From Candidatus Latescibacterota bacterium (GTDB lineage: Bacteria > Latescibacterota > UBA2968), in assembly GCA_038279365.1 (NCBI GenBank), contig JAYODI010000081.1, positions 1,409 through 25,778 on the forward strand: DNA of 24,370 nucleotides. The letters run 5' to 3'. How positions within the stretch are numbered: the first letter of the stretch is position 1; each line of letters opens with the position of its first letter. The notes under the pieces were generated by a model that saw only the letters and a list, made by a program, of their open reading frames with translations, did not search any database and was not told where the DNA came from. The position numbers and the translations under genes were made by a program. Shown one piece after another: positions 1-2,625 of the stretch.

Positions 1-69
1 TGGTTTTTGAAAGATTGATATGTTATGTTGCTGATGCTTGGCTTTGAAGATCATGCCATTGTCAGTGTA

Positions 70-348
70 CAGAAAGAACCTCAAAGCGTGTGAATTTGAG
101 GTTCTTTTTTTATTTGCCGTTTGATTTCGCATTTATTGTTAGGGATACGGAACTGGCCAGCCGGGTTTGCCACCCCGTATCCCGTTTCCTGCCAAAGCAG
201 GAAATATAATCATGCCCGCGTTTTGCCAGAAGGCAGCTCAGATAAACCAAACGCTATGGTGTGTCGGAATGGGTATGCTTGGGTGATTTTTTTTCTTGTT
301 AAACCCGATCTGATTCCAGTCGGGTTAATCCTGCCATTTTTATTTGCC
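70..348 (-). ncRNA. Candidate sigma-54-dependent structured small RNA (or structured leader), ~275 nt
   Basis: Bounded by a -24/-12 promoter (359-374, minus strand) and the hairpin at 73-107. Contains several hairpins (142-183, 185-204, 224-235, 302-326) and 7 GGCA copies. No convincing ORF with an RBS. Confidence 0.45.
73..111. terminator. Intrinsic terminator hairpin, probably bidirectional
   Basis: Perfect 13-bp inverted repeat AAAGAACCTCAAA (73-85) / TTTGAGGTTCTTT (95-107) with a 9-nt loop. A T-run follows on +, and TTCTTTCT on -. Confidence 0.8.
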
Positions 349-358
349 TTTTTATAAG

Positions 359-374
359 GCAAGGTCTGTGCCAA
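359..374 (-). promoter_or_regulatory. Sigma-54 (RpoN) -24/-12 promoter
   Basis: Minus strand reads TTGGCACAGACCTTGC, matching the consensus YTGGCAC-N5-TTGC with exact GG-N10-GC spacing. Predicted start near 347. Confidence 0.7.
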
Positions 375-402
375 TATATTTTTTACAATGTTATATAGGC
401 CA

Positions 403-415
403 TAACTGATTGTTA
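403..415. promoter_or_regulatory. IHF-like binding site upstream of the sigma-54 promoter
   Basis: TAACTGATTGTTA differs by one base from YAANNNNTTGATW. It lies in an AT-rich tract about 56-68 bp upstream of the predicted start, close to where IHF sites occur at sigma-54 promoters. Confidence 0.4.
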
Positions 416-526
416 TATTTTTCTTTATGGTGTTTTGGGAGTTTCTTGGTTTATGGAGGAAGCCTGTGACGCTCTACTGATAAATTAAGAGTGGTCTATT
501 GAATACATGAGTTATGGGCTTCGCTC

Positions 527-555
527 TTGCGTTTGTGTGCATGTCTATCTACATT
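527..555 (+). promoter_or_regulatory. Possible sigma-70 promoter for uvrB
   Basis: TTGCGT (527-532), 17-bp spacer, TACATT (550-555). An alternative extended -10 (TGGTATGAT) lies near 566-574. Confidence 0.3.
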
Positions 556-624
556 AGAATAGGTGTGGTATGATATCGACAGGCCTGTATTTTGGAAATG
601 AGCCATTTTGTGAAAGGAGTGGGT

Positions 625-2625
625 ATGCCAAGGTTTGAGGTGGTGTCACCTTATGAACCCGCAGGCGATCAACCGCAAGCCATTTCGGAGTTGGTTGAAG
701 GCATTCGGCGTGGGGCGCATTATCAGACATTGTTGGGGGCAACAGGAACGGGCAAGACTTTTACGATGTCAAAGGTGATTGAGGCGGTTCAAAAACCCAC
801 TTTGGTGATTTCGCACAATAAAACGTTGGCGGCACAGCTCTATGGTGAATTTCGAAATTTTTTCCCCAACAATGCCGTAGAATATTTCATTTCTTATTAC
901 GATTATTATCAGCCCGAAGCCTATAAACCTGTAACAGATACGTATATCGAAAAAGAATCTGATGTAAATGATGAGATCAATCGGTTGCGGTTGCGTGCCA
1001 CAAGTGCTTTGATGGAGCGGCAAGATGTGGTGATTGTGGCCAGTGTGTCGTGTATTTATGGGATAGGAAACCCCGAAGAATATGAAGGCCACTTGGTGTT
1101 TTTGGACAAAGGTGCCGAGATGGATCGCGATGCATTGTTGCGCAAGTTGGTCGATATTCATTTTACGCGCAATGATGTGGCTTTTGAACGCAGTACTTTT
1201 CGGGTGCGTGGTGATGTGGTTGAAATTTTTCCTCCCGAACGTGAGCATCCTTTTCGCATTGAGTTTTTTGGTGACGAAATTGATGCATTGAGCGAAATTC
1301 ATGAAGTCACGGGTGAGGTGATTGGCGAGCGGGATCGCGTGGTGATATATCCGGCCAAGCATTTTGTGACCAGTGGCAACCGCATCGAAAAAGCCATTGC
1401 GCGCATAGAGGTCGATTTGGCAAAGCAGTTGGAAATGTTTAAGGATCAAAATAAGTTGTTGGAAGCACAACGATTGGAAACTCGTACCCGATATGATATT
1501 GAGATGATGCGAGAAATTGGGTTTTGCCAAGGTATTGAAAATTATTCTCGTTATATTGACGGGCGAAAACCCGGTGAAGCCCCTTATGTGTTGCTTGATT
1601 ATTTTGCGGATGACTTTTTGGTGATTGTTGATGAGTCTCATGTGACCATTCCTCAAATACGTGGTATGTGGAATGGGGATCGGTCACGAAAAGAGATGCT
1701 TATTGAACACGGTTTTCGATTGCCGGGTGCATTGGACAACCGCCCGTTGTATTTTGAAGAGTTTGAGAAAAAGGCCAAGCAATTGGTGTTTTTATCGGCG
1801 ACACCTGCCGATTATGAATTGGAAAAGTGTGAGGGCGTGGTGGTTGAGCAGGTGATTCGTCCCACAGGGTTGCTCGACCCACAAATGGAAGTGCGCCCCG
1901 TGCGTGGGCAGGTGGATGACTTAATTGAAGAGACCCGTTTGCGCGTGATGAAAGGCGACCGTGTATTGGTCACAACATTGACCAAGCGCATGGCCGAAGA
2001 CTTGTCTGAGTATATGCGTGAATTGGGCATTCGGGCACGGTATATGCATTCGGATGTGGATTCGATTGAACGTGTGGAGATTATTCGCGATTTGCGTTTG
2101 GGTGAGTTTGATGTGCTGGTGGGCGTGAACTTGTTGCGTGAAGGTTTGGACTTGCCAGAAGTGTCTTTGGTGGCCATTTTGGATGCCGATAAAGAAGGCT
2201 TTTTGCGGTCTGAACGGTCATTGATCCAGACATCAGGGCGTGCAGCACGCAATGCAGATGGATTGGTGATTATGTATGCCGATAAGATTACCAATTCGAT
2301 GCAAAGGGCCATTGATGAGACCAACAGGCGTCGCGAAGTGCAAATGGCTTATAATGAGGAACACGGCATTACACCACGAACGATTTACAAAACCAAAGAA
2401 GAAATTATGCAGTCTACCATGGTCGCCGATGAAAAAGCCGAAGAATTGCCAATGGCAGCGGAGGCTTCTGAAGATTATTTGGTGGGCACAAACAAACTCG
2501 ATTTGTTGGAAGAATTGACACGTAAAATGGGTAAGGCAGCTGAAAATCTGGAATTTGAAAAGGCTGCCCAATTGCGTGATGAGATCGCGCGTCTAAAAGA
2601 ACAGATGCGAGAACAAAGTGCTTAA
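625..2625 (+). CDS. uvrB: Excinuclease ABC subunit B
   Basis: PAGDQPQAI, Walker A GATGTGKT, beta-hairpin [33 protein letters not shown] and a C-terminal UVR domain ([11 protein letters not shown]). Start moved to ATG 625 behind an AGGAG RBS. Confidence 0.98.

Follow-up and report, generated by a model that had tools for sequence, protein, structure and literature searches.

A sigma-54 promoter facing a hairpin-rich non-coding stretch beside uvrB in a Latescibacterota genome: probable relic of a decaying lipoprotein operon

Does a sigma-54 promoter that faces a hairpin-rich stretch of DNA mark the gene of a small regulatory RNA (sRNA), or can the same arrangement be left behind when genes are lost? 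The question is raised by positions 70-415 of a stretch of 24,370 nucleotides (nt) from a Candidatus Latescibacterota bacterium (assembly GCA_038279365.1, contig JAYODI010000081.1, positions 1,409 to 25,778 of the forward strand). The whole of this stretch is referred to here as the window; its genome is G000, in which it corresponds to C78:1409-25778. The original prediction, which was made from the sequence alone, held that a minus-strand promoter divergent from uvrB drives a stand-alone non-coding RNA that could be assigned to no recognised family. In this study, we compared the region with related genomes and with metagenome contigs. In the relatives the promoter drives an operon of two genes, which encode a DUF3179 lipoprotein and an outer-membrane protein (OMP), and the window retains a decayed tail of the first of these genes, so that a stand-alone RNA gene is not supported. 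Positions 70-415 are probably a decaying relic of this sigma-54 operon, which is possibly still transcribed and would have no dedicated function. What survives of the structured RNA of no recognised family is a pair of hairpins, A and B, forming a covarying module (133-212) that is absent from Rfam.

The sigma-54 consensus TGGCAC-N5-TTGC combines GG at -24 and GC at -12 at a fixed spacing. Its sole exact match in the window is TGGCACAGACCTTGC on the minus strand, where 0.15 matches are expected; at least one exact site occurred in 15 of 100 shuffled windows. When G000 was aligned with the same-genus genome G001 and the metagenome contigs L246 and L191, all 18 columns of a block over the promoter were invariant and the flanks had diverged. 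From the promoter spacing, transcription is predicted to start near 347. The genome encodes rpoN (Sigma54_DBD match, E 2.6e-60), and a Sigma54_activat search returned 30 matches, 26 of them at E <= 1e-60. The promoter proposed originally is therefore exact, unique in the window and conserved in relatives, and the sigma factor and enhancer-binding proteins that it had called for are encoded in the genome. Across G000 there are 64 exact sites, against 15 for a reversed control pattern, and by a crude test 43 of the 64 have an open frame of at least 100 codons within 250 nt downstream; the site in the window is not among the 43. No credible open reading frame (ORF) was found in the candidate region, as had been stated, and all four hairpins that had been named were located (142-183, 185-204, 224-235 and 302-326) within a strong fold. 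The proposed site for integration host factor (IHF) fared less well, since it matches WATCAANNNNTTR with one mismatch and the window contains 37 such sites where 32.4 are expected, which is chance level.

In a BLAST comparison with 41 related genomes only three gave a match, namely G000 and two other genomes of its genus. An identical site (TTGGCACAGACCTTGC) is found upstream of uvrB in the same orientation in G001 (contigs C653 and C569), where it lies 81 nt ahead of the ATG of a gene for a lipoprotein of 396 amino acids on the strand that corresponds to the minus strand of the window. Several hairpins follow this gene, and then the OMP gene. The Pfam matches are DUF3179 (E 7e-79) for the lipoprotein and Phenol_MetA_deg (E 3e-8) for the OMP. 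The metagenome contigs L246 and L191, with 128 differences between them in 4307 positions, carry the entire locus in one piece, including uvrB and the same promoter. Their OMP is 98% identical to that of the third same-genus genome, G002, whose contig stops within the spacer between the two genes and in which no DUF3179 match was found. The genus is sampled in three lineages, and the exact-pattern scans of genome and metagenome contigs covered 23/64 and 22/64 parts, so that the relatives counted are a lower bound; among the 240 loci in the matches listed, L191 and L246 are the only related ones, the others being chance matches without flanking stems or genes.

Of the 31 genomes of the family, 26 contain DUF3179 homologs, and an OMP homolog adjoins DUF3179 in 21 of 30 loci examined. 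Upstream of DUF3179 the exact sigma-54 pattern is present in two of 23 regions, those of G001 and of a second copy in G000; two more genera carry CGGCAC-N5-TTGCA at this place, as judged by eye, and the upstream regions of the large genus g5 have a TTGACT...TAATTT box in common instead. The second copy in G000 is an intact DUF3179 and OMP pair on contig C29, with amino-acid identities of 70% and 68% to G001. A tree was built from 14 proteins (those of 13 of the 30 loci and the frame-0 part of L246), and in it the C29 DUF3179 protein is sister to the uvrB-adjacent copies with support 90/88. Upstream of the C29 operon two identical sigma-54-type sites (TGGCACGTCTTTTGCGTTTT) stand back to back on opposite strands, 9 nt apart (C29:4820-4858), and the hairpin in its spacer is a different one, with a U-tract behind it on the sense strand.

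The left end of the window can be divided by blastn against the relatives into three homologous blocks. Positions 1-115 correspond to the end of a small ORF of G001 and its terminator, 132-274 to the spacer hairpins and the 3' end of the lipoprotein gene, and 349-640 to the promoter and the region upstream of uvrB. No clear homologous block was found by blastn against the relatives for 275-348; in the four-way alignment, however, 300-358 aligns weakly with the 5' untranslated region (5'UTR) of G001 and L246. The hairpin at 302-326, which is specific to G000, folds at about -13 kcal/mol. The A-rich junction or filler next to it has no repeat elsewhere in G000. The gene tail was recovered by tblastn in a search space of 640 nt only: the end of the G001 protein, PIASHNGFWFAWATFWQNTGI, aligns with PIPTHHSVWFI*AAFWQNAGM (window 273-211) at E 2e-6, and the C29 copy as query gives E 9e-7. 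A TGG codon has become an in-frame TGA at 240-238, and 2 bp have been deleted near the former stop. Over 66 columns, 13 substitutions are unique to the relic, compared with one in G001, two in L246 and three in C29, and the relic DNA is about equally distant from all intact copies (64-68% identity). To the left, the OMP stop codon is the exact point from which homology to G001 continues, with a shared 8-mer (ATTGTTAG). To judge from these alignments, what is missing from the window is about 1.1 kb of the lipoprotein gene and, in addition, the second hairpin module, the OMP gene and all that lay between them. The alternative of an insertion in the relatives was ruled out, because the decayed tail matches a motif that is found family-wide and in the distant genus g5. 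A further tblastn similarity, between window 323-264 and the GEKAKAYPF region (E 0.06-0.27), overlapped in another frame and was treated as chance. The features of the locus are collected in Table 1.

Table 1. Features at the left end of the window, in window coordinates
Feature	Position	Strand	Basis or remark
Small-ORF 3' end (...WFLKD*)	1-18	plus	Starts left of the N10 scaffold gap
Intrinsic terminator, 13-14 bp stem (72-108) then T7ATTT	72-115	plus	Ends the small convergent ORF
One copy of the two-hairpin module	133-212	minus	Covariance model R2
Hairpin B, loop region GGCAAACCCGGCUGGCC (171-155)	142-183	minus	Module R2
Hairpin A, UUUCCUGC/GCAGGAAA	185-204	minus	Module R2
Decayed last 22 codons of the DUF3179 lipoprotein gene	208-273	minus	tblastn to the intact protein
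Deletion junction or filler, A-rich	275-299	minus	Replaces about 1.1 kb of DUF3179 coding sequence of relatives
5'UTR remnant of the operon	300-347	minus	Includes the G000-specific hairpin 302-326
Sigma-54 promoter, -24/-12 core TGGCACagaccTTGC	373-359	minus	Exact consensus match
Invariant 18-nt block GCAAGGTCTGTGCCAATA (plus-strand reading)	359-376	minus (promoter)	Four-way alignment
IHF-like site, weak	403-415	minus	WATCAANNNNTTR with one mismatch
uvrB, divergent from the sigma-54 promoter	625-2625	plus	Pfam UvrB_inter, UvrB, UVR

The DUF3179 lipoproteins themselves (L003:1778-2968 and the C29 copy) contain a CPLT motif. DUF3179 appears in a review table of prokaryotic selenoprotein families with UxxC/T (PMC9312934), and this entry together with the CPLT motif suggests a redox-active site. 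The idea of a selenocysteine insertion sequence (SECIS) was dropped, since the TGA of the relic stands in place of a conserved Trp, and Cys is what these proteins carry (CPLT).

Like pseudogene remnants, the region is syntenic with intact homologous genes of relatives, carries disabling lesions in a coding tail that has accumulated substitutions at an accelerated rate, and has an intergenic region made by deletion. In the history that these comparisons suggest, the ancestral operon would have consisted of the DUF3179 lipoprotein gene, a structured spacer and the gene of the MetA-like OMP, placed between the small plus-strand ORF and uvrB. One deletion would have taken the lipoprotein gene from near its start codon up to codon 374, another would have begun with the second spacer module and ended with the stop codon of the OMP gene, and what they would have left over is an intact promoter, the old 5'UTR, 22 decayed codons, one module and the adjoining convergent terminator. 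We infer that the lipoprotein gene was lost before the OMP gene. Its loss would have given a promoter, one or more modules and an OMP gene, as in genome G036; such a staged loss is plausible because this combination exists there naturally without DUF3179. The OMP gene and the second module would have followed later, and some strains have lost the terminator and half of the module that was left as well. The intact DUF3179 and OMP operon on C29 means that the copy beside uvrB could be spared. Should the promoter still be fired by its cognate activator, the product would be an RNA of about 275 nt, from about 347 to the hairpin at 108-72, a by-product for which we infer no function.

Several observations weigh against the reading as an operon relic. 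The promoter is unchanged at 18 of 18 positions, as is the 17-nt loop region of hairpin B, and both stems are perfect, directly beside a coding relic with about 20% lineage-specific substitutions; by rough arithmetic (0.8^35, about 4e-4), 35 unchanged positions are unlikely under uniform neutral decay. Hairpin B also differs from a G002 copy by two fully compensatory GC-to-AU changes, which implies that selection acted on the structure in one of the two lineages at least. Furthermore, contigs from RNA libraries of one sample hold 175-329, which makes transcription possible. Staged decay would explain an intact promoter, loop and stems next to a coding tail of which about 20% has changed.

Window 1-640 is partly present in 20 rows of metagenome matches from 12 studies (estuary, marine and marsh metagenomes), and contigs were examined from four runs, the DNA runs X1 and X2 and the RNA-library runs X16 and X17 (one sample). 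A 355-nt contig of X1, which may be the source sample of G000, covers 17-371 with no differences. A contig of X2, from another study, covers 175-697 with two differences; to the left of 175 it continues with C78:548-577, which lies inside an HDOD gene. The junction of window 175 with C78:577 is a 1005-bp deletion with CCG microhomology, and it takes the 3' half of the HDOD gene, all of the small ORF and its terminator, and from hairpin B the 5' arm and the loop. Erosion of the locus continues in this near-identical strain variant. X16 and X17 each provided one 194-nt contig, which covers window 175-329 and 39 nt at the junction of the deletion variant, and neither run had any sequence of the promoter or uvrB; these contigs come without strand, ends or level, DNA carry-over is possible, and they were not counted as evidence of transcription. 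In a 56-nt low-depth contig of X1, window 342-371 is joined to G000:C196:47764: the contig departs from the window inside the -24 element and continues with sequence near the end of C196. This junction may be a rare rearrangement or a chimeric contig.

Two of the hairpins in the window, A and B, belong to a more widespread element. A covariance model of four hairpins (R1) detected further copies in seven of 53 genomes of the order. The unit consists of hairpin A, UUYCCYGC-loop-GCRGGAA, directly followed by hairpin B, in which a variable G-rich/C-rich stem closes on GGC[nnnCCCGGCUG]GCC. RNAalifold predicted 19 pairs, 10 of them with compensatory changes, from an unfitted MAFFT alignment of nine units, and model R2 was built from these nine. 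With a cut-off of E <= 1e-3, R2 matches in 26 of 132 genomes of the class, in nine genera (the E-values of both models are rough, owing to a short calibration). The matches are concentrated in family f2 (20 of 22 genomes, including all 15 of genus g7); the counts are 4/30 in family f1 excluding G000, 1/76 in f4, where the match is weak, and 0/3 in f3. A match of 29.6 bits in G068 has an aberrant loop and no recognisable context and is probably false. The copy in the window scores 56.7 bits (E 7e-14), having belonged to the training set, and is the only one in G000 at E <= 1.

Hairpin B has the same 17-nt loop region (155-171) in G000, G001, G002 and L246/L191, on stems that differ; G001 has one full copy of it and one partial copy at a contig end, and G002 has two copies. 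As a string, this 17-mer (GGCCAGCCGGGTTTGCC) was also considered as a repeat of the repetitive extragenic palindromic (REP) type, and it occurs once in G000 even with up to two mismatches; as a sigma-54 site it fails on inspection, the GG-to-GC spacing being off by 2. Loop-loop kissing via CCGG would involve 4 bp only and finds no support. Within the genus the strand of hairpin B is contradictory, the first G002 module favouring sense (-27.2 vs -17.7 kcal/mol) and the second antisense; the wider alignment has about 35 G-U cells of 510 on the sense strand, the strand to which it was fitted. Covariation is strong in the model-fitted alignment of 31 matches (28 distinct rows): 91.2% of cells pair, and 11 of the 19 pairs have two-sided changes (42 cells), figures to be read with the fit favouring structure and with related sequences not being independent. 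None of 500 shuffles reached any of the five covariation measures, and slid controls paired at 39-63% only.

Neither the window as a whole, at the gathering score of Rfam 15, nor the module loci of relatives, at E <= 0.1, gave an Rfam match, and the original statement that the RNA could not be assigned to a family holds. For window 1-700 at E <= 10 there was sub-threshold noise only, the best hit, which overlaps the terminator on the plus strand, scoring 30 bits where the threshold is 60. A full-text literature search for the 12-mer of the loop returned unrelated papers only, though the module may have been described elsewhere. The ends of G001:C653, G001:C569 and G002:C234 all lie inside or beside tandem modules, which would be expected of short-read assemblies confused by the repeated loop region, and the first module of G001 is split by such a break. 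In L246 (2790-2880) and at the same place in L191, the reading frame of DUF3179 changes at a stretch of six G, against five in G001; in both contigs the two spacer modules are also fused, and in the single unit that results the arms of hairpin B have lost their pairing. The cause may be operon decay in that lineage, or homopolymer error.

Every module copy lies on the sense strand of its flanking genes. One to three tandem copies are found between DUF3179 and the OMP gene in G001, G002/L246, G003, G047 and G049; in G007 three copies follow the DUF3179 stop, and no OMP homolog was found on that contig. Elsewhere a single module precedes, by about 30-125 nt, the start of a gene whose product has at least about 480 amino acids, in all 10 g7 loci examined and in G029 and G047. 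Peptidase_MA_2 and PD40 (Pfam) were found in both of the large proteins tested, and the others are about 73% identical to one of these. The sigma-54 pattern stands ahead of the module in three of 14 loci examined. In two of them, G029 (TGGCACGCCGATTGC) and G052 (TGGCACGCGGATTGC, where the contig ends before the gene downstream of the module), the predicted start falls at the first bases of hairpin A; it does so likewise in the third, G036 (CGGCACGCGGCTTGCA), in which the OMP gene follows and no DUF3179 is present within 1.5 kb. The loci of genus g7 (L331-L346) share a conserved GGAAC-N16-TCTAA box that precedes the module by about 75-130 nt and lies ahead of the Peptidase_MA_2/PD40 gene as well; we take this box to resemble promoters of the extracytoplasmic function (ECF)/sigma-E type. 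In the window no gene follows the module, and the next feature is the convergent terminator.

The stems of the module covary freely, and the sequences of the B loop and of hairpin A are conserved. A conserved loop, a position at or near the 5' end of mRNAs for exported proteins and a copy number of one to three would fit a hairpin that senses a ligand, or a site to which a trans-acting protein or RNA binds. The module may in this way set the stability or translation of the downstream gene, or a 5'-terminal hairpin could simply protect the mRNA. It is absent from Rfam 15 and represents a new candidate cis-regulatory RNA of envelope-protein genes. One could go further and regard the module as an undescribed class of regulatory leader RNA that senses a protein or small ligand through its invariant CCCGGCUG loop, and the copy in the window as a decoy sRNA at its birth; we consider this combined proposal quite doubtful. 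If true, the module would control envelope-protein genes under sigma-54 and other alternative-sigma promoters, and the window would show it cut off from its genes, still behind an intact sigma-54 promoter and acting in trans.

Once the genes had gone, selection may have kept the promoter, the module and a borrowed bidirectional terminator together as a newborn stand-alone sRNA that acts in trans, for example as a decoy for a factor that binds the conserved loop of the module. The intact promoter, 17-nt loop region and stems beside the decayed coding relic agree with this, as do the strong fold (-87 kcal/mol for window 66-347 on the minus strand, z -5.0 vs shuffles; -92.8 kcal/mol and z -3.7 on the plus strand), the RNA-library contig that holds 175-329, and the fact that promoter and module are a working combination in G029, G052 and G036. 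However, none of the relatives has the unit without genes, and G001, L246 and L191 keep an intact or nearly intact operon at this site. G000 has no second module with which a decoy could compete, and the near-identical strain variant has dispensed with the 5' arm of hairpin B, its loop and the terminator. The stem of the proposed terminator is real, but the T-run (TTTTTTTATTT, 105-115) lies 3' of the stem (72-108) on the plus strand; the minus-strand tail after the terminal hairpin reads just TTTCTGT, without a U-tract, and a simple terminator scan reported nothing. G001 has an orthologous hairpin behind its small plus-strand ORF, with the same loop (AGCGTGTG) and the same plus-strand T7ATTT and with compensatory changes in the stem, and the hairpin is therefore the terminator of the convergent plus-strand gene; for minus-strand transcripts it could be a weak bidirectional stop. 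On balance we regard a newborn sRNA as unlikely.

Such a tail, UUUCUGU, makes read-through plausible, and the genes to the left are convergent; a transcript from 347 might thus run into the small ORF and the HDOD gene and regulate both by antisense pairing or interference. This is very unlikely, given that the OMP gene intervenes in G001, that the arrangement is new and specific to G000, and that nothing suggests selection for such a transcript. The alternative allowed for originally, in which the region is the attenuating leader of a minus-strand gene that lies past the left edge, can practically be dismissed. Left of the window the scaffold has plus-strand genes only, for an HDOD/HD protein and the small ORF. 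The N10 scaffold gap adjoins window position 1, and the small ORF crosses it in frame with its G001 ortholog (NL[IV]WEG...DAS...W[FV]LKD*): the ends read ...DDASCCRVVWVLKD in G001 and ...EDAS[gap]WFLKD in G000, with the stop at window 16-18. By homology to the G001 ORF the gap would conceal about 15 nt, which is all the room there is. The small ORF has about 50 codons (G000:C78:1274-1426, to window 18), spans the gap and has its own conserved terminator. The same gap, an assembly of 199 contigs and an estimated contamination of 7.4% might lead one to suspect an assembly artefact or a bin chimera that mimics a deletion. We judge this extremely improbable, since the X1 contig runs through 17-371 without a difference and the X2 contig from the other study through 175-697, and since the divergence of the relic from every intact copy, C29 included (64-68% identity), makes a mis-join of those copies impossible.

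CrcZ is a sigma-54-dependent sRNA. So are GlmY/GlmZ (PMC3045617) and Qrr1 (PMC10162802), as described in these sources. The region resembles all of them in that a near-consensus -24/-12 promoter faces a structured non-coding stretch. Unlike them, its unit matches no Rfam family, is not conserved without genes, has no terminator of its own on the transcribed strand and is derived from a coding operon. The birth of an sRNA through rearrangement has been described, in a case whose promoter arose by point mutation (Raghavan et al., 2015, PMC4350180). The region differs from that case in uniting a pre-existing alternative-sigma promoter with a pre-existing RNA module. GlnZ is described as a 3'UTR-derived sRNA that is released from a sigma-54-dependent mRNA (PMC9731577). 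The module of the relatives likewise stands directly after the stop codon of a sigma-54-transcribed gene; it differs in being a 5' leader of other genes as well.

Other families of hairpins invite comparison with the module itself. The guanidine-II (mini-ykkC) riboswitch consists of tandem hairpins with ACGR tetraloops, and the module shares with it conserved loops on freely covarying stems, a frequent tandem arrangement and a position upstream of genes for exported or membrane proteins. However, the loop of the module has about 11 nt with CCCGGCUG and not ACGR, each unit joins two unlike hairpins, the copy number varies from one to three, and no guanidine-II/mini-ykkC Rfam match was found on the window or the loci of relatives. 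EutX/Rli55 is a decoy sRNA with an ANTAR-binding dual hairpin that titrates its binder, and it provides the precedent for the mechanism that a newborn sRNA in the window would need; the loops of the module are not hexaloops of the ANTAR type, though, and G000 has no other module copy. REP elements and bacterial interspersed mosaic elements (BIME) are intercistronic hairpins present in hundreds per genome. The module resembles them in lying between operon genes, sometimes in tandem, and differs from them in its one to three matches (one or two loci) per genome and its strictly conserved loop sequence.

The locus, largely explained as the probable remains of an operon, should temper sRNA calls that rest only on a promoter, hairpins and the absence of an ORF. 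It also offers a datable natural case in which a promoter and a structured RNA have been united by gene loss, one proposed route to sRNA genes. Since closely related strains erode further, the outcome could be followed in population data.

Between the promoter and uvrB, the block 472-569 is the best-conserved non-coding stretch of the region, 83% identical to its counterpart in G001. Either uvrB or the divergent sigma-54 promoter, or the two together, could depend on it, and activator sites could lie in it alongside elements that serve uvrB. The block contains a sigma-70-like TTGCGT-N17-TACATT, two direct repeats TCTAYTGA about 21 nt apart and, on the plus strand, a sigma-54-like string (GGGCTTCGCTCTTGC).

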